A program made the position numbers and the translations under genes. The notes below the pieces were generated by a model. The model saw only the letters and a program-made list of their open reading frames with translations, was not told the origin of the DNA and did no database searches. Positions 52,666 through 63,318 of a stretch of DNA of 64,000 nt are shown here, piece by piece. Source of the stretch: Candidatus Oxydemutator sp. (lineage in GTDB: Bacteria; Pseudomonadota; Gammaproteobacteria; Poriferisulfidales; Oxydemutatoraceae); NCBI GenBank assembly GCA_965203445.1, contig OZ241883.1, positions 1,856,001 to 1,920,000 on the forward strand. The letters are read 5' to 3'. Numbering within the stretch: position 1 is the stretch's first letter; every line of letters starts with the position of its first letter.

Positions 52666-53064
52666 ATGAGGCACCGCAAAGCCGGCAGAAAGCTGAACCG
52701 CAGCGCCAGCCATCGCAAGCGCATGTTCGCCAACATGGCGGTCTCGCTGATCAAGCACGAGACGATACGTACGACGTTGGCCAAGGCGAAGGAACTGAGG
52801 CGCACGCTGGAACCGTTGATCACGCTGGCCGGCAGCGACGGCGTCGCCGCGCGTCGCCGCGCTTTTGCCCGCTTGCGCGACAAGGAAGCGGTCGGCAAGT
52901 TGTTCGACGATTTGGGGCCGCACTACCGCGACCGTCCAGGCGGCTATCTGCGCGTACTGAAGCACGGCTTTCGCAAGGGTGATAATGCCCCGATGGGCCA
53001 CGTCAGCCTCGTCGGTCGCAGCCCTGCAAACGAAGCCGAAGAGCCGGAAAAGGCCTCCAGCTGA
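52666..53064 (+). CDS. rplQ: 50S ribosomal protein L17
   Basis: [25 protein letters not shown]. Confidence 0.98.
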
Positions 53065-53116
53065 CCCGCCGCGCGACACCGCTCATCCGCCCCGCTGTTT
53101 TCTCCTTTGTCCCCGA

Positions 53117-53148
53117 CTCTCCGCCACGGGGAGAATAGGGTATGAGGG
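53117..53148. repeat. Degenerate REP-like hairpin resembling the 1269-1349 element
   Basis: ctctcc..ggaga followed by gggtatgaggg (approximate reverse complement of ccctcacccc). Confidence 0.35.
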
Positions 53149-53454
53149 CGATTTCTCTCAAGTAACCCCGTATGCGTGGCGCAAGCGCCGCTGCGAAAAC
53201 AGGCTTAGTGCCTTGCCCGATCTGACTAGCCGCGACGCTTGGTAGATGGCGGCCGCCGAGTCGCTCGGTCGCCCGCTGGCGGCACTCGACAAAAATCAAC
53301 CATGTCGCCGGCGTCAAATGCAAGGTTATCGCGCCGCTCTGAGGCGGCAGATGAGAGGGGGTTTGCGGAGTTGGTCGGGGCGCGCCCGTCGTAATCGGAC
53401 GCGAAACGCCGCCTGCCCGCGGCACCACCAAGTTATCGGAAGGCGGGTCTGCCT

Positions 53455-53829
53455 TCACCTCGCCCTTTTCGGGCAAACTTGATCGTAGCTCAACGGTTCA
53501 AGCCCATATATATCTCTGAATTTATTGATATTCTTTTCCGTCTCTGAACACTCCACCAAGCGCAGTCTTTCTCTTTTTTCGTGCGAAGAGATTCCCGTGC
53601 CCATTCCCACCCAAAGGAAGACGACAAACACAATCATGAACAAGCACGTAGATACAACGCTGATTTCTTCTTTCCCAAATGCGCGATACAGTGCTATCCC
53701 CGCACCAGTCAAAACTACCGGAAGCACTGCTGCCAAAGCTTCGCCACTGTCAGCCGCAAAGAAGCCAACGGCATAACCGACAAGTGCGGTAGTTATGAAA
53801 ACAAGTGTGATAGTTCTGAAAACCATCAC
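53455..53829 (-). CDS. Hypothetical 3-TM membrane protein (low GC)
   Basis: Three hydrophobic segments plus a C-terminal Cys pair; GTGA overlap with the upstream gene. Confidence 0.65.
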   Translation of the reverse strand: MMVFRTITLVFITTALVGYAVGFFAADSGEALAAVLPVVLTGAGIALYRAFGKEEISVVSTCLFMIVFVVFLWVGMGTGISSHEKRERLRLVECSETEKNINKFRDIYGLEPLSYDQVCPKRAR

Positions 53830-54113
53830 CTGCTTGTTTCTATGATAAGTGCATCCATATAGAGGAACCCTCGCTCTGTGAGAAACTTCAGAGAAGTCAA
53901 TAAATCTTCATCTTCGGCAGTTTTCGCTTTTTTGTAACATTCCTCTTCCCACTCACCGTGCCCCTTACTCTTTATGCAATCTACGAAGCTCTCTGCTGGT
54001 GGGGTGGCGGACTGGTCGAGGTATTTTTCCGGCGAGATGGCCGATTCAGCACCCGCCATACCGCTGAACGCGACGGCAAGCACAAAGCAGAAGGTCTGCA
54101 ACGTCTTTTTCAT
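53826..54113 (-). CDS. Hypothetical secreted protein (low GC)
   Basis: GGGAGGA SD 7 nt upstream of ATG 54113; signal peptide MKKTLQTFCFVLAVAFSGMAGA; Cys pair. Confidence 0.65.
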   Translation of the reverse strand: MKKTLQTFCFVLAVAFSGMAGAESAISPEKYLDQSATPPAESFVDCIKSKGHGEWEEECYKKAKTAEDEDLLTSLKFLTERGFLYMDALIIETSR

Positions 54114-54310
54114 GGCACTGTCCTCCCTTTCCGACAATCAAGGAAAGCCATTGTGGCTGTGGCGCGATTGTAGCACGCGCCGGCCATCCATCCGCCACGC
54201 CGCGGCCGGGTAATTCCCCCTGCCTGGCGGCCCTCCGCCGGACATCTGGTCTATACAGCGGTGCGGTTGTTTTGTCCGGCAGGCCAGGACTTTCTTAAGC
54301 GATTTTATTT

Positions 54311-55144
54311 GAACCTATCTCAAAATCGAATATCTGCTGATTATCGTGTATGATCTATTGCATGGTACGATTGAGCGACGAGCAATGGGAACGCATACGC
54401 AAGCACTTCCCAGAAGAAAACATCCCGCCGGGTCGGGCCGGTCGCAAACCGGTGCCGACAAGAAAAGTTCTCGAAGGCGTCCTGTGGATCCTCAACACGG
54501 GTGCACAATGGAAGATGCTGCCGCAATGTTATCCGAATTACAAAACAGTTCATCGTCGTTTTCAACGATGGTGTATGAACAACACCTTGCGCGATCTGCT
54601 GGTGGACTTGGCTAACGATTTACGCAAGGAAGGGATCGTGGACGAGAGGGAGTGTTATATAGATGGGATGTTTGCCGCGGCCAAAGGGGGTGGCGCCGAG
54701 GTGGGTAGGACGAAGCGCGGAAAAGGCGTCAGAATCATGGCCATAGTGGATAAGCATGGTCTGCCGTTGTCGGTCAGTACGCACGCGGCGAACCATCACG
54801 AAGTGACCTTGGTGCAGTTGAGTTTTGACTTTTACATGATAGAGGCGAAGCCGAAGAACCTGATAGGGGATCGCGCCTATGATAGCGATGGTTTGGATGA
54901 GGAATTGCGCGCTTCGGGGATAGAGATGATAGCCCCGCACAAACGCAATCGTAAGAAACGCAAGACCCAGGATGGTCGCAGACTGCGCCGCTATGAAAGG
55001 CGCTGGATAGTGGAGAGATCTTTTGCATGGCTACAATGGCAACGACGAGTGTTAACACGGTGGGAGTATTACGCGCATAACTTTTTTGGTTTTGTGCAGC
55101 TGGCCGCCATGATGATATTGATTAGGCAATTTTGAGATAGGTTC
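54311..55144 (+). mobile_element. IS5-family insertion sequence, 834 bp
   Basis: Perfect 16-bp terminal IRs gaacctatctcaaaat (54311-54326) / attttgagataggttc (55129-55144); ttattt flanks both ends. Confidence 0.92.
54362..55135 (+). CDS. IS5-family DDE transposase
   Basis: LSDEQWERI, TGAQW..LP..Y..KTVHRRF, IDG, GDRAYDS, RWIVERSFAW; stop codon lies in the right IR. Confidence 0.93.
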   Translation: MVRLSDEQWERIRKHFPEENIPPGRAGRKPVPTRKVLEGVLWILNTGAQWKMLPQCYPNYKTVHRRFQRWCMNNTLRDLLVDLANDLRKEGIVDERECYIDGMFAAAKGGGAEVGRTKRGKGVRIMAIVDKHGLPLSVSTHAANHHEVTLVQLSFDFYMIEAKPKNLIGDRAYDSDGLDEELRASGIEMIAPHKRNRKKRKTQDGRRLRRYERRWIVERSFAWLQWQRRVLTRWEYYAHNFFGFVQLAAMMILIRQF

Positions 55145-55154
55145 TTATTTTTTC

Positions 55155-56000
55155 TTACACTCCCGCTGCTTTCAGGGTGTTTTCTATCAGGCAGGCTACG
55201 GTCATCGGGCCGGTGCCGCCGGGCATCGGGGTGATGGCGCCGGCCACCGTGCGCGCTTCGTCGAAGGCCACGTCGCCGACGATCTTGCCGTCTTTTTCGT
55301 TGACGCCTACGTCCACGACCGTGGCCCCCGGTTTGACGAAGCTTTTTTTGACCAGCTCGGGCATGCCGGCGGCGGCGACCAGGACGTCGGCATCGCGGCA
55401 CACCGCCTCGAGGTCCTGCGTCCTCGAATGGCATACGGTTACGGTCGCATCCACGCCGCGCAGCGCCAGCAGCAAGGCCTGCGGCAGGCCGACCAGGTGC
55501 GAGCGGCCGATGACGACCGCCTTTCGACCTTGCGTCGGGATCTCGTATTCTTCGATCAGGCGCATCACGCCAAGCGGCGTGCACGGCACCAGGTTCGGTT
55601 TGCCGCGCACCAGACGGCCGAGATTTTCGGCGGTCAGGCCGTCCACGTCTTTGGCCGCGGGGATCAGATCTATCACCGCGTCGGTGTCCACGTGGCCGGG
55701 CAGCGGCAGTTGCACGAGGATGCCGTGCACCGAATCATCCGCCCCCAGCTCGCGCACCGCCGCCTCAAGCCGCGCTTGTGCGACTTCTTCCGGCAACTCG
55801 ACCATGTGCGTCTTGAGGCCGCCGCGCGCAGCCATTTTCTGCTTGAGGTTGACGTAGTAGCGGCTGGGTGCGTGGCTGCCTACGAGCACCGTCGCCAGCG
55901 TGACTTCCGGGTTCCCGGCCGCCGCCAGTTTCTCGGCGACGCCTGCGACGATACGCTCGGCGGTGCGTTTGCCGTCGAGCAGCAAGGCTTGCTGCGGCAT
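55155..56000 (-). CDS. folD: Bifunctional methylene-THF dehydrogenase / methenyl-THF cyclohydrolase
   Basis: YxxxK (YVNLK), HGILVQLPLP, KDVDG, PCTP, DVG, ITPMPGGTGPMT; ATG at 56000. Confidence 0.95.
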   Translation of the reverse strand: MPQQALLLDGKRTAERIVAGVAEKLAAAGNPEVTLATVLVGSHAPSRYYVNLKQKMAARGGLKTHMVELPEEVAQARLEAAVRELGADDSVHGILVQLPLPGHVDTDAVIDLIPAAKDVDGLTAENLGRLVRGKPNLVPCTPLGVMRLIEEYEIPTQGRKAVVIGRSHLVGLPQALLLALRGVDATVTVCHSRTQDLEAVCRDADVLVAAAGMPELVKKSFVKPGATVVDVGVNEKDGKIVGDVAFDEARTVAGAITPMPGGTGPMTVACLIENTLKAAGV

Positions 56001-56002
56001 CG

Positions 56003-56926
56003 TCAGGCGCGCGGCTGCCTGTCGGGGTGCAGGTAGATCAGGCTTTTGCCGAGGCGCCCGCCGTAATTGCCGGCGGAGATCATCAGCAATCCGTCGGTAT
56101 CCCTGGAGGCGGCGATCGCGGCCTGGGTCGCCTCGATGATGCAGTCCACGTCGCGCCCGTTCATGATGATTTCCATGACCGAGTGAACGCCTTCGGGCAG
56201 TCCGCATTCGACGCCCGGCTCGTCGCGCAGCAGCGGGCAGAATTTTTCGTAGGTGCTGGCGACGGTGAAGTCGTATTTGCTGCCGGCTTTCGAGCCGCTG
56301 CCGGCGACGCCGCCGGGGAAGGTCGAGATTACGCCGGGCACCGGCAGGATCGCCGCGACGCCTTTTTCCGCAGCCGCAAGCGCCGCGTCGACGTCGCGCC
56401 CGAAGAACCACAGGTTGCCGCCCATCAGGCCGTCGCGGTAGCCGAGCCTGCGGTCGAGTACGAATTCGCCGCCCAATATAGGGATCCACCACATTTTGCG
56501 GCCGTGGCGTTCGATGCGCTTCTGGTAGCCGTTGCCGAAGTAGGCGACCTTGCGTCCCATCTGGAAGTAGTCGTCGCCCTCGATCAGGTTGAAGCACGAG
56601 GCGGTCGGGCAAGTGAGCACGTTCTGGCTGATGCGCACGAGCGCCGCGCGTTCGAGTCTGTCGACGCGGTCTTTCCAGAACTTCGGCGCGTGCAGCTGGA
56701 CGACGGCGCCGGGGCGCCCGTCGGGCGTTTGAAAACTCTCGTCGCCGCCGCGTCCCACGTAGCGGTCCATGCCGGCCTCGCAGTCGCACAGGATCGAACT
56801 CGAGGCGTTGCCGGTGCAGGCTTCGACCGCGTAGTCGAGCCATTTCCGGTCGCGCGCGGTGATCAGGAACTCGACGTGGATGCTCTTGAACGCCTCGGCG
56901 TAGGTGTCGTCTATGATCGCGCCCAT
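56003..56926 (-). CDS. ftr: Formylmethanofuran--tetrahydromethanopterin N-formyltransferase family (Ftr/FhcD)
   Basis: IDDTYAEAF, CDCEAG, TPDGRPG, QNVLTCPT, GGN, FPGGVAGSGSKAGSKY, ISAGNYGGRLG; ATG at 56926. Confidence 0.9.
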   Translation of the reverse strand: MGAIIDDTYAEAFKSIHVEFLITARDRKWLDYAVEACTGNASSSILCDCEAGMDRYVGRGGDESFQTPDGRPGAVVQLHAPKFWKDRVDRLERAALVRISQNVLTCPTASCFNLIEGDDYFQMGRKVAYFGNGYQKRIERHGRKMWWIPILGGEFVLDRRLGYRDGLMGGNLWFFGRDVDAALAAAEKGVAAILPVPGVISTFPGGVAGSGSKAGSKYDFTVASTYEKFCPLLRDEPGVECGLPEGVHSVMEIIMNGRDVDCIIEATQAAIAASRDTDGLLMISAGNYGGRLGKSLIYLHPDRQPRA

Positions 56927-56928
56927 GG

Positions 56929-57567
56929 TCAGCCTCGGCCGCGGCCTTCGTACACGGCCTTCTCGGTGATGACTTTGTCCATGTAGACGTCGTGCGGCGC
57001 GACCAGCACTTGGTCGAACATCTGCGACTCGTAGGCGAGCGCGATCAGCGGGCAGTCGCGGCGGACTTTCTCGAGCAGGCGGTCGTAATACCCTTGGCCG
57101 TTGCCCATGCGCCCGCCGCCTCGGTCGAAGCCGACGCCCGGCACCATCACGACGTCGAGCGTCTGTGGCTCGATCTCCTTGGCCGGGTCGCCCCACATCT
57201 CGCGCGGCGGTTCGAGGATTTTCCATTTGCCGACCACCAGTTCATCGAAGCTCTCCAGGTGAAACAGGCCGAGTTTGTTTTCGCCTTTCTCGTCCACCGT
57301 GCAGTAGGGTACGACGATTTTCTTGCCGCCTTTCTCGATTTCCTTTTTCAGGTGCGGTTTGGTGCGGGTTTCGGAGCGGCAGTCTATATACCACATCGCG
57401 CTCCTGGCGCTCCGGTATTCGGGCAGCGCGATGAATCGTTCGCAGATCGTGGCGCTCACCTCGTCTTTGTCCTCCTGCGCCGCGCGCGCGTCGTAGGCTT
57501 GGCGGCGCATCTTGTTCTTGCGCTCCATGATTTGTTCGAGTTCCTGCGGGGTCGGCGTCATAAGCAT
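56929..57567 (-). CDS. 5-formyltetrahydrofolate cyclo-ligase (YgfA/Fau family)
   Basis: KNKMRR, ILEP, VPGVGFDRGGGRMGNGQGYYDR, PHDVYMDKVITE. Confidence 0.93.
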   Translation of the reverse strand: MLMTPTPQELEQIMERKNKMRRQAYDARAAQEDKDEVSATICERFIALPEYRSARSAMWYIDCRSETRTKPHLKKEIEKGGKKIVVPYCTVDEKGENKLGLFHLESFDELVVGKWKILEPPREMWGDPAKEIEPQTLDVVMVPGVGFDRGGGRMGNGQGYYDRLLEKVRRDCPLIALAYESQMFDQVLVAPHDVYMDKVITEKAVYEGRGRG

Positions 57568-57595
57568 GCTCCTTGTGTCGTTAGTTGCGCAACAT

Positions 57596-57601
57596 TATAA
57601 T
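57596..57601 (+). promoter_or_regulatory. -10 box 7 nt upstream of ATG 57609 (leaderless candidate)
   Basis: TATAAT at 57596-57601, no SD. Confidence 0.5.
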
Positions 57602-57608
57602 CAATTTT

Positions 57609-58514
57609 ATGCCCGGTGCGCGTTTCATCACGTTCGGCGGCGGCAGAAGGTGGCATCGCGCCGCCGACAGGATCGCGCGACAAGCCGAGGCGTTTGATTT
57701 GTTCGATGAGGTGGCTGCCTACACCGCGCGAGACCTGAGACGTTTCACCGATTTCTGGAAACAACACGGCGCGTTCATCCGCGCCAACCGCCGAGGTTAC
57801 GGCTACTGGCTGTGGAAACCCTTTCTGATCCTCGAGAGTCTTAAGCGTATGGAGACCGGGGACATATTGTTCTACGCCGATGCCGGCTGTGAACTCAACG
57901 TGTACGGTCTGGAGAGGATGAAGGATTATCTCAGCTTGTGCTCGGAGGGGAGGATCTTGAATTTTGAACTGAGGAGTAGTATCTCAACGTGGACCAAAAT
58001 GGATACTATCGTGCGCGTTGATCCGCGGTGCCGTCACGCGCAAAAATCGCCGTACGCGGCCACCCTGTTATTCTTTGCAAAGACAAACGCCACTATGGAG
58101 TTGGTCGAGCAGTGGTACGGTTTGTGCACGGAGGACGATTATCGTTACCTGGATGATTCGTCTTCCCACCGGCCCAACCATCGCGACTTTCGCGAACATA
58201 GGCATGATCAGGCGATTTTGTCCCTGCTTGTGCGAAAGCACGGGTTTGGTTCCGCTGTGAGTGTGGCTGAGTGCTGGTTCGGGCCGTGCTCCGTCAGAGC
58301 GCCCCGAGAGGGAAGCCTGTACCCCGTGTGGTTCAGCAAGAACGCAAGCGGCGTCCCCTCTCTCGCATGTTTGACCTTGCACCGTGAGCGGAATCCGAAA
58401 AAGTTTCCATTGCCCGTTTGGGCCTGGTTGCGTTGCAGGCGGCGTTTTGTTGGTGTCAAGGACGCGATGCGCAGCGCCGTCGGAAGGATATTACGAAGGG
58501 TGAGGAGAGGATGA
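57609..58514 (+). CDS. Putative GT-A-like glycosyltransferase / glycan-modifying protein
   Basis: RGYGYWLWKP, DxD-like YADAG, EHRHDQAILS motifs; lower GC than core genes. Confidence 0.6.
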   Translation: MPGARFITFGGGRRWHRAADRIARQAEAFDLFDEVAAYTARDLRRFTDFWKQHGAFIRANRRGYGYWLWKPFLILESLKRMETGDILFYADAGCELNVYGLERMKDYLSLCSEGRILNFELRSSISTWTKMDTIVRVDPRCRHAQKSPYAATLLFFAKTNATMELVEQWYGLCTEDDYRYLDDSSSHRPNHRDFREHRHDQAILSLLVRKHGFGSAVSVAECWFGPCSVRAPREGSLYPVWFSKNASGVPSLACLTLHRERNPKKFPLPVWAWLRCRRRFVGVKDAMRSAVGRILRRVRRG

Positions 58515-58571
58515 AAAAGCGCGATGCCGTTCTAGTATTCAGTATGCGCGTTTCCGCCGTTTTGTCGCCGT

Positions 58572-59024
58572 TCAGTGGCACGCCTTGCCGTATTTCTTAA
58601 GCCGCCAGTAGTTGTAGGGCCACGGGGTCACAAAACCCGCGGCCAGCGCCGGTACGACCGCGGCCGGCGTCAGTCTGGCGCCCCCGGCGATCAGCCAGTC
58701 GGTCGCGTTCATCGCCGTCTCCATCGCCAGCATCGAAAGGAAGCTCATGCCGAGCGCGGTTTTCAACGCCGCGCGCGGCGCCAAGTGGCGGCGTATCAGG
58801 ATCGCGGTCTCAAGCAGCACGCTGGTGGCAAGGCCGTTGATCATCGCCAGCCCCATGATCGCCAGCCCCGGCCACGCGATCTCGTTCAACTGAAAGAACA
58901 GGATCGTGCCGAAGTCGCCGATGGTGCAGCCGATCAGGCACCACATCGTGTTGTAGGCGCTCGCGCCCCACGTGTGGCGACACGTCCAGAACGGGCTTGC
59001 GAACGAGTTTGCGGATGTCGCCAT
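58572..59024 (-). CDS. DUF4396-like membrane protein
   Basis: WCLIGCTIGD, GMSFLSMLAME..MN, GFVTPWPYNYW, C-terminal KACH; TGATG coupling to ilvD. Confidence 0.75.
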   Translation of the reverse strand: MATSANSFASPFWTCRHTWGASAYNTMWCLIGCTIGDFGTILFFQLNEIAWPGLAIMGLAMINGLATSVLLETAILIRRHLAPRAALKTALGMSFLSMLAMETAMNATDWLIAGGARLTPAAVVPALAAGFVTPWPYNYWRLKKYGKACH

Positions 59025-60697
59025 CAGTCGGTAACGGCGCCTTCGGAGGCCGGGCGGACGAGCCTTGCGTACTTGGCGAGCGCGCCGCGGGCGTAGCGCG
59101 GCTTCGGCGGTTTCCAGCGCGCCAGACGCCGCCGGATTTCCGCCGCCGGCAGTTTCAGGTCGAGCTCGCGCTTGACCGCGTCTATCGTGATCGGGTCGTC
59201 GTCGCGCACGATTGCGAGCGGGCCGCCGGTCGCCGCCTCCGGCGTGACGTGCCCGACGACGAAGCCGTGGCTGCCGCCGGAAAAGCGCCCGTCGGTGATC
59301 AGCGCGACGTCGCGCCCCAGGCCCTTGCCCATGATGGCCGAGGTCGGCGCCAGCATCTCGCGCATACCGGGGCCGCCCACCGGGCCTTCACAGCGGATTA
59401 CGACGACGTGGCCTTTTTTGATCGCGCCTTTGAGGATGCTTTTCATCGCCGCCTCCTCGGACGCGAAGACGCGCGCCTTGCCGGTAAAACGCAGTCCCTC
59501 CTTGCCGGTAATTTTGGCGACCGCCCCCTGCGGCGCCAGATTGCCGCGCAATATCACGAGATGGCCATCGGCCTTGATCGGGTCGTCAAACGACCGGATG
59601 ATGCGCTGCCTGGCGGGGTAGGGCGGCGTTTTCGCAAGGTCGCGCGCGAGCGTTTTGCCGGTCACGGTGAGGCAGTCGCCGTGCAGCAGCCCGCGGTCCA
59701 GCAACTGCTTCATCAGCGGGCGGATGCCGCCGATGCGCACCAGCTCGGACATCCAGTAGCGCCCGCTCGGGCGCAGATCGGCCAGCACCGGCACGCGCGC
59801 GCCGATGCGCGCAAAGTCGTCCAACGACAGCGCCACGCCGCATGCGTGCGCCATCGCCAGCAGGTGCAGCACCGCGTTGGTCGAGCCGCCGAGCGCGGTT
59901 ACGACCGTGATCGCGTTCTCAAACGCCTGCGCGGTCATGACGTCGCGTGGCAGTATCTGTTTCCTGACCAGGTTCACGACCATGCGTCCGGCCTCGGCGC
60001 AGTCGCGCGCCTTGTTGCGCGACACTGCGTTTTGGGCCGAACTGCCGGGCGCGCTCATGCCCATGGCCTCGATGGCCGACGCCATCGTGTTGGCGGTGTA
60101 CATGCCGCCGCACGAACCGGGCCCCGGAATCGCGCCGGCCTCGATGTCGTTCAATTCGCGCGCGCTGATCAGGCCTTTGCTGCGCGCGCCGACGGCCTCG
60201 AACACCGTGACCACGTCGGCTTTTTTGCCGGCGGCGCGTCCCGGCAGTATGGTGCCGCCGTAAATGAACACGCCCGGGCGATTCAGGCGCGCCAACGCGA
60301 TCATGCAGCCCGGCATGTTCTTGTCGCAGCCGCCGATCGCGACGACGCCGTCGAAGCCCTCGCAGGCGACGACCGCCTCTATCGAGTCGGCGATGATCTC
60401 GCGCGATACCAGCGAGTATTTCATGCCCTCGGTGCCCATCGAGATGCCGTCGGAGACGGTGATCGTATTGAACACGACGGCCTTGCCGCCGGCGCGGTCT
60501 ATCGCGCGCGCGCTCTTGTCGGCCAGGCCGTCTATGTGCACGTTGCACGGCGTGACCTCGCTCCAGGTCGAGGCGACGCCGATTTGCGGCTTCTTGAAGT
60601 CGGCGCCGGTGAAGCCGACGGCGCGCAGCATCGCGCGACTCGGCGCGCGCTCGAGGCCGTCGACCACGGCGGCGGAATATTTGCGGGCTTTGTTCAT
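59024..60697 (-). CDS. ilvD: Dihydroxy-acid dehydratase (PCN Cys present, [2Fe-2S]-type signature)
   Basis: [37 protein letters not shown]. Confidence 0.97.
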
Positions 60698-62163: not shown

Positions 62164-62193
62164 TCAATCAAAGGCGAGTCAATCAAAGGCGAG
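62164..62193. repeat. Perfect 15-bp tandem duplication including the egtB stop codon
   Basis: tcaatcaaaggcgag at 62164-62178 and 62179-62193. Confidence 0.9.
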
Positions 62194-63318
62194 GCGTAGC
62201 CCGGAGAAGATGTGGCGCTTTTCGGGCGTGTGGAAGTTTCTGAAGCTCAGGCGCGTGCAGTCGCCCTCGCTGAAGGCGCTGGCGCCGCGCAGCACGTAGT
62301 GCGCGCCGTCGAACCACGGCGTCGAGTATTCGTCGTACGGAAAGGCGCGAAAGCCTTCGTAGGGGTGAAAGGCGTTCGCGCACCATTCCCAGGCTTGCGT
62401 GTTCTTATCGAGCAGTCCCTGCGCACCCGCGGTCTCCCATTCATATTCGCACGGCAGCCGCGCGCCCGCGTAGCGGCTGAAGGCGCGCGCCTCGAAATGG
62501 CTGAGGCCGCGCACTGGAGCCTCGGGGTCGAGCGCGCGCGCACCAAAGCAGGTAATCTCGAACCAGCCGCCGTCGCGCGCGCGCCGCCAACCGTCGGGCG
62601 CGCGGCATCCGAGCGCGCGCCGCCAGCGCAGTCCCGCGGCGTCCCAGTGCCGGTCCCGCCGGTAGCCGCCGTCTTCGATAAAGCCCAGATACTCGGCGTT
62701 GGCGACGGCGTCGCGCGCAATCGCAAAAGACTTCATCCTTTTCCCGTGGCGCGGCAGTTCGTTGTCGAACGACCAGTCGTCAACACCGCCGATTTCGTAT
62801 TCGCCCGCGGCCACGTGCACGGCTTCGCGCCGCACCGGAGCGGCCTGCGTGAGTCCGCGCGCGTGGTCGCGCTGCCTGCACAGCCTGAGTTGGCGCTGCG
62901 TCAGCACCATGCGCATCGTCTCGACGTGCTGGGCGTGGTGCTGCACCAGAAATTTCAGCAGGTAGTCGTCGGTGCCCGCCGGTTGCTTGTGCGGCGTTTG
63001 CAACAGGCGGACGTTGGCGCGCTGGCGCCGTCGCGCGTCGTCCACGAGTGCTATCTTTTCCGGCAGCCGCGCACCGCGCTCGGCCTTGATACTGTTTTCC
63101 GGGACGTAGAGCGCGTGCTCCCCGTCGCGCAACGTTTCCTTGTGCAGCCAGAAATCCTCGACAAAAATCGTATGGCCGACGTGCCAGCCGATGGGGCTTA
63201 AGTCCACGTGGTACTGCTCGCGGCATTCGGCGTCGCCGAGCGGTGCGATCAGCGCGAGGATGGTTTCCTGTAGTCGCCGCAGGCGGCGCACCAGGCGCAC
63301 TGAGGCCGGATCGTTCAT
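62179..63318 (-). CDS. egtB: Ergothioneine sulfoxide synthase EgtB (DinB + FGE-fold)
   Basis: SPIGWHVGH, QHHAQHVE iron ligands, FDNE, FPYDEYS, RNF..FSGLR; adjacent to egtC. Confidence 0.85.
   Translation of the reverse strand: MNDPASVRLVRRLRRLQETILALIAPLGDAECREQYHVDLSPIGWHVGHTIFVEDFWLHKETLRDGEHALYVPENSIKAERGARLPEKIALVDDARRRQRANVRLLQTPHKQPAGTDDYLLKFLVQHHAQHVETMRMVLTQRQLRLCRQRDHARGLTQAAPVRREAVHVAAGEYEIGGVDDWSFDNELPRHGKRMKSFAIARDAVANAEYLGFIEDGGYRRDRHWDAAGLRWRRALGCRAPDGWRRARDGGWFEITCFGARALDPEAPVRGLSHFEARAFSRYAGARLPCEYEWETAGAQGLLDKNTQAWEWCANAFHPYEGFRAFPYDEYSTPWFDGAHYVLRGASAFSEGDCTRLSFRNFHTPEKRHIFSGLRLAFD

Follow-up and report, generated by a model that had tools for sequence, protein, structure and literature searches.

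A divergent Ftr/FhcD paralog coupled to the sole 5-formyltetrahydrofolate cyclo-ligase of Candidatus Oxydemutator suggests an undescribed formyl route from the methanopterin to the folate branch

Introduction

The tetrahydromethanopterin (H4MPT) and tetrahydrofolate (THF) branches of bacterial one-carbon (C1) metabolism are taught as being joined via free formate and FtfL, and the other recognised links between them are spontaneous or enzyme-aided condensations of formaldehyde. Here we describe a three-gene operon of Candidatus Oxydemutator sp., in which a divergent paralog of the Ftr/FhcD formyltransferases, in the following called Ftr2, stands between a homolog of 5-formyltetrahydrofolate cyclo-ligase (MTHFS) and FolD, the bifunctional methylene-THF dehydrogenase/methenyl-THF cyclohydrolase. 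The operon lies in a stretch of 64,000 nucleotides (nt), the window, which covers positions 1,856,001-1,920,000 of one 2.38-Mb contig (OZ241883.1) in a genome that is rated 100% complete, and the coordinates of single genes are positions in this window. The pairing of MTHFS and Ftr2 suggests, by comparison of sequences, an undescribed formyl route from the methanopterin to the folate branch.

Several described systems resemble parts of the operon. In methanogenesis or sulfate reduction, archaeal Ftr works with methanofuran and H4MPT that are free to diffuse. Like the archaeal enzymes of solved structure (A. fulgidus 1M5H; M. kandleri 1FTR/2FHJ/2FHK), Ftr2 has its gene away from those of the dehydrogenase/hydrolase subunits, but it is bacterial, only about 40% identical, carries clade-specific insertions and residue switches, and belongs to a folate operon. 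With FhcD of M. extorquens (PDB 6S6Y), Ftr2 has in common the two-lobe Ftr fold family (PF01913 and PF02741), the catalytic Glu252 and the company of H4MPT pathway genes, whereas it is coupled to MTHFS and not to FhcA/B/C, forms a separate clade, and has had near-universal residues replaced. The module proposed here would, like FtfL/Fhs, put oxidised C1 on THF at one ATP per C1 unit; it has no homology to FtfL/Fhs, however, and would use no free formate, the ATP being spent at the step from 5-formyl to methenyl and not on the activation of formate.

The two-step logic of the proposed bridge is known from histidine catabolism of the FTCD type, in which a formimino- or formyltransferase loads N5 of THF and a cyclodeaminase or MTHFS then yields methenyl-THF; that route has another transferase family and formimino- or formylglutamate as donor. 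For the MTHFS homologs MTH204/MTBMA_c06530 of THF-less methanogens, a role on 5-formyl-H4MPT is suggested in the accessible part of Kaster et al. (PMC3087415). In both cases an MTHFS-family protein occurs in an H4MPT user, a likeness by description and not by sequence, but here THF is made (FolC), MTHFS is the sole copy, and it shares an operon with FolD. The remark of Kaster et al. is the nearest that we have found to an Ftr-MTHFS module, of which no description was met in the literature searched (subscription journals and supplements lay outside the search), and there is no mention of it in the accessible parts of PMC5020050 or of the literature on Porisulfidus/Oxydemutator.

Results and discussion

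The operon and its conservation

The genes are transcribed in the order MTHFS, Ftr2, FolD (Table 1), and a preliminary description of them as a co-oriented trio with gaps of 2 nt is borne out by direct reading of the sequence, by translation and by Pfam and NCBIfam matches, the strand being the minus strand. The TGA of MTHFS (56931-56929) precedes the ATG of Ftr2 (56926-56924), and the TGA of Ftr2 (56005-56003) the ATG of FolD (56000-55998). Public predictions start MTHFS at M3 (57561), which gives 210 amino acids (aa).

Searches for related loci gave 371 relatives, and the best 80 of them (74-89% identity) were used for all counts out of 80 in the following. They are from metagenome-assembled genomes of marine and sponge-associated Gammaproteobacteria (Ca. 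Porisulfidus, Ca. Oxydemutatoraceae, 'Thiotrichales/Chromatiales') and a few Planctomycetota, and they are kin, not independent observations. MTHFS is found directly upstream of Ftr2 and on the same strand in 78/80 loci; one of the two exceptions ends at a contig edge, and the other is a planctomycete locus with MTHFS 1.2 kb off on the opposite strand. The stop codon of MTHFS is within -4 to +8 nt of the start of Ftr2 in 71 of these 78 loci, which argues that the tight arrangement is not due to chance, and within 20 nt in all 78. FolD is downstream of Ftr2 in 62/80 loci, at a spacing of about -11 to 185 nt. The pairing of MTHFS with Ftr2 has thus stood, and that with FolD is looser.

The same picture is given by whole genomes. 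Exactly one MTHFS is present in 50/53 genomes of the order, and by coordinates it is adjacent to Ftr2 in every one of the 49 that have both genes. In our sample of the class it is upstream in 8/9 Ftr2 loci, from five families (G367, G022, G201, G046, G043, G170, G346, G401), the ninth (G182) being cut by the contig end. No Ftr2 genome examined has an MTHFS besides the linked one, and at 20 canonical FhcD loci neither MTHFS nor FolD was found within a distance of 1.5 kb. Conservation of the linkage between transferase and cyclo-ligase, which the preliminary description had named as a check, is accordingly seen in at least six gammaproteobacterial families, to which a co-transfer to Planctomycetota is added. 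That the 80 loci could be one recent clone was considered and rejected, as in these same genomes FolD goes down to 48-64% identity, and canonical FhcD to as little as 49%.

By family criteria the MTHFS of the operon is a predicted 5-formyl-THF cyclo-ligase. It covers the complete PF01812 model (1-186 of 186, 125.5 bits) and scores above the cut-off of the equivalog TIGR02727 (125.8 vs. 84.9). Residues G155, N156, G157, G159, Y160, Y161, D162, R163, K17 and R21 are unchanged in 28 Ftr2-linked and 4 unlinked relatives, and we take the glycine-rich G-Y-Y-D-R motif and the N-terminal Lys/Arg to be the signature of the family. FolD has both its catalytic and its NAD(P)-binding domain (PF00763, 106.2 bits; PF02882, 208.3 bits), and is below the equivalog cut-off of every NCBIfam FolD model (best 309.9 vs. 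396).

Ftr2 is a separate clade of the Ftr/FhcD family

Ftr2 has both lobes of the family at full length (PF01913 at residues 3-150, 139.5 bits; PF02741 at residues 153-300, 157.3 bits). It passes the cut-off of NF002554 (309.6 bits, cut-off 297) and is narrowly under that of the equivalog TIGR03119 (290.7 bits, cut-off 292.6), on which models the genome's own FhcD, 42% identical to Ftr2, scores 418 and 407 bits. The best matches among solved structures, over residues 2-300, are 1m5h (222 bits) and 1ftr (218 bits), with M. extorquens FhcD (6s6y_D) at 169 bits. There are 965 family matches to Ftr2 among 1.84 billion representatives at 50% identity; one full-length representative (P0004, 64% identity) is inside the Ftr2 clade, and the next full-length matches are 40-44% identical. 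Over the 53 order and 400 class genomes, the identity to the window's Ftr2 is bimodal, being 70% or more or else 46% or less, and no value falls between.

A maximum-likelihood tree was made from 76 rows, comprising the window's Ftr2, 17 of 96 Ftr2 matches, 25 canonical FhcD and 33 of 42 full-length representatives; L001, a duplicate of L003, and nine representatives with only partial alignment were left out. Ftr2 stands there as a clade of its own (100 in the Shimodaira-Hasegawa-like approximate likelihood ratio test, SH-aLRT), whose stem is about 0.74 changes per site long and whose internal branches are short, and the expected separation from Fhc-embedded FhcD is thus found. P0034 also falls inside the clade, on a branch of 2.13 and with an odd composition, and its placement is unreliable. 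Ftr2 lies outside the fhc operon, which holds the other paralog. By fold and catalytic residue Ftr2 belongs to the Ftr/FhcD superfamily, and we do not file it as an FhcD equivalog, because it failed several tests of conserved residues as well as that of the operon. In present public annotation Ftr2 and FhcD carry identical names.

The residues were compared between 94 Ftr2 rows and 56 rows of other Ftr/FhcD, in the numbering of the window's Ftr2. E252 is kept in 90% or more of the rows of each set and is invariant in a further alignment; it corresponds to the catalytic Glu, which is Glu245 in M. kandleri Ftr. In M. extorquens FhcD the catalytic Glu is Glu252, according to the accessible part of PMC6926001. 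Other positions are switched: position 19 is E in Ftr2 and R in 96% of the others, position 132 is N vs. D in 93%, position 226 is Y vs. N in 88%, position 151 is L vs. M, and a basic residue at position 234, present in 93% of the others, is found in less than 20% of Ftr2. Specific to Ftr2 are also insertions at 62, 78-82 and 239, and about 12 conserved Lys/Arg. This pattern fits a kept chemistry with a changed recognition of the coenzyme.

The replaced residues and the insertions, read as altered ligand recognition, would also suit an Ftr2 with some other donor or acceptor. It could move the formyl group of 5-formyl-THF to methylofuran or H4MPT, that is out of the folate pool, use another N-formyl donor, or be a non-catalytic scaffold. 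We think this quite improbable, since Ftr2 co-occurs with the H4MPT/methanofuran pathway in nearly all Ftr2 genomes checked, which points to the cofactors of that pathway, and since an Ftr2 that consumes 5-formyl-THF would duplicate MTHFS and not need it; the invariant catalytic Glu speaks against a purely structural role. A predicted complex of two Ftr2 and one MTHFS had a median score of 0.31 against a mark of 0.32, which is neither for nor against binding.

A simpler explanation is that Ftr2 is an ordinary, H4MPT-specific and free-standing isozyme beside FhcD, which stands with MTHFS and FolD by co-regulation only and shares no intermediate with them. This would agree with the complete lobes, the passed NF002554 cut-off and the kept Glu, and with nearest structures that are stand-alone archaeal Ftr rather than M. 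extorquens FhcD. Canonical FhcD moreover accompanies Ftr2 in 47 of the 49 order genomes with full-length Ftr2, in 10/10 of the class sample and in 4/4 Planctomycetota, and two of the three basal planctomycete Ftr2 genes described below are unlinked to MTHFS. We nevertheless regard it as somewhat unlikely. A redundant copy would not be expected to be always more conserved than the canonical FhcD of the same genomes (70-89% vs. 49-76% identity to the proteins of this genome) or to be retained even in genomes of 0.9-1.2 Mb, and the isozyme leaves unexplained why near-universal residues were replaced, why MTHFS in particular is coupled, co-transferred and newly constrained, and why FtfL is mostly missing.

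Two observations concern the canonical FhcD. In the family of the window genome, seven genomes (G024, G028, G032-G036) have an FhcD that is 49-52% identical to that of the window genome and an Ftr2 that is 78-82% identical, and there are two separate gammaproteobacterial FhcD groups in the tree; together this suggests that the canonical FhcD has been replaced in some genera. Several Gammaproteobacteria without Ftr2 have a second FhcD gene of canonical type on the same contig, 5-7 kb from the first (G066:C154, G283:C80, G284:C21, G376:C1, G212:C1, G062:C98), which is another kind of Ftr duplication than Ftr2.

One-carbon genes of the genome and the distribution of FtfL

Family searches placed a canonical fhcB-A-D-C cluster at 1.157-1.162 Mb (FhcD 418 bits, FhcA 718, FhcB 507, FhcC 258) and a cluster of beta-RFAP synthase, Mpt_N dehydrogenase, Mch (408.6 bits) and Fae at 2.012-2.019 Mb; Mch, Fae and Mpt_N are each single in the genome. 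The window had been described as devoid of fhcA/B/C, mch, mtd and fae, and this is right inasmuch as the known copies lie outside it (1.157-1.162 and 2.013-2.019 Mb; extra copies of fhcA/B/C were not sought genome-wide). The picture of a stand-alone Ftr that had been drawn from it has to be given up, fhcBADC, mch, mtd and fae being present elsewhere in the genome. MfnB-type 4HFCP synthase and FolC were found as well. From this inventory, the organism is predicted to make H4MPT, a methanofuran-type cofactor and folate, and to have the full H4MPT route of formaldehyde oxidation. The complete genome was searched for FtfL (FTHFS domain, PF01268), without a match. The inventory of ftfL and of the biosynthesis genes, which had been proposed as a check, thus shows an organism in which the H4MPT route and its cofactors are present, yet the textbook formate link to THF is missing.

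The MTHFS of the operon is the sole MTHFS in the genome, and its FolD the sole FolD match above cut-off. In the alternative that the preliminary description gave, MTHFS might act on 5-formyl-H4MPT made by Ftr2, as an ATP-driven and irreversible substitute for Mch that gives methenyl-H4MPT. The Mch step from 5-formyl-H4MPT to methenyl-H4MPT needs no ATP, and the genome has a normal Mch. The linked MTHFS, being the only copy, must still salvage 5-formyl-THF; it is above the equivalog cut-off, its family invariant residues are common to linked and unlinked relatives, and the usual third gene, FolD, is a THF enzyme. We therefore give this substitution very little credence, even if the linked MTHFS differs markedly from its unlinked relatives and the suggestion for the homologs of THF-less methanogens, in the accessible part of Kaster et al. 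(PMC3087415), goes in its direction.

The shortage of FtfL is not confined to this genome. In the class sample, of which 400 genomes were scored, FtfL is present in 3/10 Ftr2 genomes, in 36/44 genomes with FhcD and without Ftr2, and in 44/346 genomes without FhcD; in the order it is present in 3/53 genomes. Fisher's test gives p = 0.003 by genome and 0.03 by family, both of which are optimistic since the genomes are kin and not independent. The absence of FtfL seen in the genome thus extends to most Ftr2 genomes, and FtfL is present in most other Gammaproteobacteria with the H4MPT pathway. Small genomes with FhcD only (1.1-1.7 Mb) retain FtfL, so that genome reduction by itself accounts poorly for this pattern.

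Origin and horizontal transfer of the pair

The gene ilvD is co-syntenic in 54/80 of the related loci. Scored against the window's MTHFS, ordinary gammaproteobacterial copies reach at most 71 bits and linked copies at least 292 bits, with seven intermediates at 146-244 bits. Four of these intermediates (G216, G365, G199, G133) are directly downstream of ilvD, with neither Ftr nor FolD, and for this reason we regard ilvD-MTHFS as the older arrangement, into which Ftr2 and FolD came later. The Ftr2-less relatives have diverged equally in IlvD (73-75% identity, vs. a median of 72.4% in Ftr2-linked loci), but at this equal divergence the identity of MTHFS is 44-55% in the unlinked and has a median of 73.7% in the Ftr2-linked loci. 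MTHFS would therefore either have been altered and strongly constrained after its pairing with Ftr2, or travel with it. One pair of genomes listed in the same genus (g202) differs in the whole set: G401 has both FhcD and Ftr2, and the Ftr2-linked MTHFS is its only one, and G243 has no Ftr match and an MTHFS of the ordinary type, which hints that the H4MPT set and the module were gained or lost within the genus and that the resident MTHFS was displaced.

Four Planctomycetota genomes (5.8-7.4 Mb) each have a canonical FhcD, an Ftr2 that is 77-81% identical to that of the window, and one MTHFS, which is the Ftr2-linked one. The pair stands there in unrelated neighbourhoods (TrpA, fasciclin, ECF sigma factor, FeoB, 3-keto-disaccharide hydrolase), and in the tree the planctomycete Ftr2 nests within the gammaproteobacterial clade. 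Because of the differing neighbourhoods, the sole and linked MTHFS and the nested position, we conclude that the pair moved horizontally into Planctomycetota, without FolD, and has stayed together. The possibility that these matches are mis-binned gammaproteobacterial contigs was rejected in view of the different neighbours, the large genomes with an FhcD of their own and the separate 115-member cluster of Planctomycetota.

This cluster (P0004, 115 members at 90% identity, with Planctomycetota names) is the deepest branch of Ftr2. An Ftr2-type gene is present in 4/301 sampled Planctomycetota genomes, the centre genome counted, and three basal planctomycete genes are 62-63% identical to the window's Ftr2. 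In one of the three genomes (G723) MTHFS is directly upstream, with 49% identity for MTHFS and 63% for Ftr2 to those of the window, and in the other two (G571, G609) it is away from Ftr2. The linkage with MTHFS is strict in the Ftr2 crown clade and not in the basal planctomycete lineages. A small gene with tetratricopeptide (TPR) repeats precedes Ftr2 on the same strand in G571 (L136) and G609 (L138), and the TPR protein may be a conserved partner of Ftr2 in that lineage.

These data also bear on whether the linkage has a function at all, since the order of the genes could simply have been inherited within one marine gammaproteobacterial radiation. The older ilvD-MTHFS arrangement, the IlvD found at 54/80 loci and the kinship of the 80 loci are what would be expected from that. 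Against it, the junction of MTHFS and Ftr2 is held at -4 to +8 nt in 71/78 loci, whereas the spacing of Ftr2 and FolD drifts from -11 to 185 nt; and the pair has stayed together in unrelated planctomycete neighbourhoods and is found as an independently divergent pair in G723. An inherited order without functional meaning is thus hardly probable.

A possible formyl bridge into the folate pool

We hypothesize that Ftr2 is a catalytically competent and neofunctionalised paralog, which together with MTHFS, and usually FolD, would form a formyl bridge into THF; we put this forward tentatively, as a serious possibility. It is the main proposal of the preliminary description in a somewhat modified form, it asks for the fewest assumptions, and the data support that proposal in part. 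Ftr2 would take the formyl group from the H4MPT/methylofuran branch, as formyl-methylofuran or possibly as 5-formyl-H4MPT, and its chemistry would be a Glu-assisted N-formyl transfer to the N5 of a pterin, here the N5 of THF, giving 5-formyl-THF. The pterin that accepts the formyl group, its donor and the way in which the flux runs are what we infer, in distinction to the identities of the genes, the clade, the coupling, the co-transfer, the kept Glu, the replaced residues and the pattern of FtfL. MTHFS would then spend ATP on the irreversible step to 5,10-methenyl-THF, which FolD would convert to 10-formyl-THF or methylene-THF. Each C1 unit would cost one ATP, as it does with FtfL, and no free formate would be needed. 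Judged by gene content (beta-RFAP synthase, MfnB-type 4HFCP synthase, FolC), none of the cofactors is lacking.

A bridge of this kind would make sense of several features. According to the accessible part of PMC6416297, 5-formyl-THF inhibits SHMT and AICARFT, and the tight junction would be explained because the translational coupling of MTHFS and Ftr2 would keep 5-formyl-THF from building up. It would also explain that MTHFS, normally a loosely conserved salvage enzyme, is here as conserved as IlvD, that the pair moves as a unit, and that FtfL is dispensable.

A number of points weigh against the bridge. FolD is missing downstream of Ftr2 in 18/80 loci, MTHFS is away from two of the three basal planctomycete genes, and, ilvD-MTHFS being older than Ftr2, the linkage is in part inherited synteny. 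MTHFS and FolD are, as the only copies in the genome, housekeeping genes as well, and their presence needs no special pathway. FtfL and Ftr2 are found together in G021, G022, G028, G170 and G346, so they are not strictly exchangeable, and when four unpublished genomes (G091, G192, G346, G358) are removed the counts for FtfL are 2/9 vs. 33/41. An added polyglutamate-binding patch finds no support in the overall charge of Ftr2, which is no more basic than other Ftr/FhcD (median net charge -7, vs. -1.5), in spite of the conserved Lys/Arg noted above, and sequence does not decide between THF and H4MPT as the acceptor. The donor is a difficulty too. In M. extorquens, as far as the accessible part of PMC6926001 goes, FhcD sits in the Fhc complex via FhcC, and methylofuran is about 97% protein-bound, as a prosthetic group of Fhc. 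Free formyl-methylofuran may therefore not exist as a donor, and Ftr2 might need to dock on Fhc or to use 5-formyl-H4MPT. In a fuller form of the bridge, a pterin-switched Ftr2 would load N5 of THF with a formyl group that comes from 5-formyl-H4MPT or from formyl-methylofuran, in the latter case perhaps after docking on Fhc, where it would catch the swinging arm. With the coupled MTHFS it would make up a formate-free and ATP-driven bridge from H4MPT to THF that has replaced FtfL in widespread marine and sponge-associated Gammaproteobacteria and some Planctomycetota. We consider this possible, and hold it with more doubt than the bridge as such.

Flanking genes and regulatory scans

Table 1. 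Features of the operon and its surroundings, in window positions.
Feature	Position	Strand	Remarks
IS4/5-family transposase (DUF4096 + DDE_Tnp_1)	54350-55135	plus	ends 20 nt from FolD stop, convergent with operon
FolD (bifunctional methylene-THF dehydrogenase / methenyl-THF cyclohydrolase)	56000..55155	minus	281 aa; PF00763 + PF02882
Spacer, Ftr2 stop / FolD start	56002-56001	minus	2 nt; read directly
Ftr2 (divergent Ftr/FhcD paralog)	56926..56003	minus	307 aa; PF01913 + PF02741
Spacer, MTHFS stop / Ftr2 start	56928-56927	minus	2 nt; translational-coupling distance
MTHFS (5-formyltetrahydrofolate cyclo-ligase homolog)	57567..56929	minus	212 aa; PF01812, TIGR02727
DUF4396 protein	58572..59024	minus	PF14342; between ilvD and ~1-kb unannotated stretch
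ilvD (dihydroxy-acid dehydratase)	59024..60697	minus	PF00920 + PF24877; upstream anchor of older ilvD-MTHFS synteny
DinB_2 + FGE-sulfatase domain protein	62179-63318	minus	Pfam domains

The transposase at the downstream end is placed between FolD and the cluster of rpoA and ribosomal protein genes. Upstream of MTHFS is a stretch of about 1 kb (57568-58571) of lower GC content (0.56-0.58), with a long open reading frame on the plus strand (57585-58514) that has no Pfam match and is matched in just 2/80 related loci; the DUF4396 gene beyond it is kept in 6/80 only. In the relatives ilvD and MTHFS are mostly 96-280 nt apart, which suggests that this stretch and the DUF4396 gene were inserted locally. 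The domain architecture of the protein at the upstream end of the table, DinB_2 and FGE-sulfatase, is one that we take to be typical of EgtB/OvoA-like sulfoxide synthases.

In E. coli ygfA is preceded by ssrS, the 6S RNA, and a 6S RNA or riboswitch upstream of MTHFS was sought with Rfam over window positions 53000-59500, with no match at E up to 0.1. The promoter scan gave a weak and single sigma-70-like site (minus strand, 57893-57866) and the terminator scan of the locus gave terminator-like sites at chance level only; neither was used as evidence.

Conclusions

Even if the bridge should be wrong, a highly conserved Ftr paralog that is translationally coupled to the sole MTHFS in 50/53 genomes of one order and has spread across phyla stays notable, and the Ftr2 module is a well-defined and cheap target for enzymology, which could refine the annotation of paralogs that now carry identical names. 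If the bridge is true, the Ftr family would gain a new reaction, the direct hand-over of a formyl group from one cofactor system to the other, and MTHFS would be put to a new use, as a pathway enzyme instead of a salvage enzyme. It would then also explain how an H4MPT pathway can do without FtfL in the abundant, genome-reduced, sulfur-oxidising Gammaproteobacteria of the sea and in those associated with sponges.

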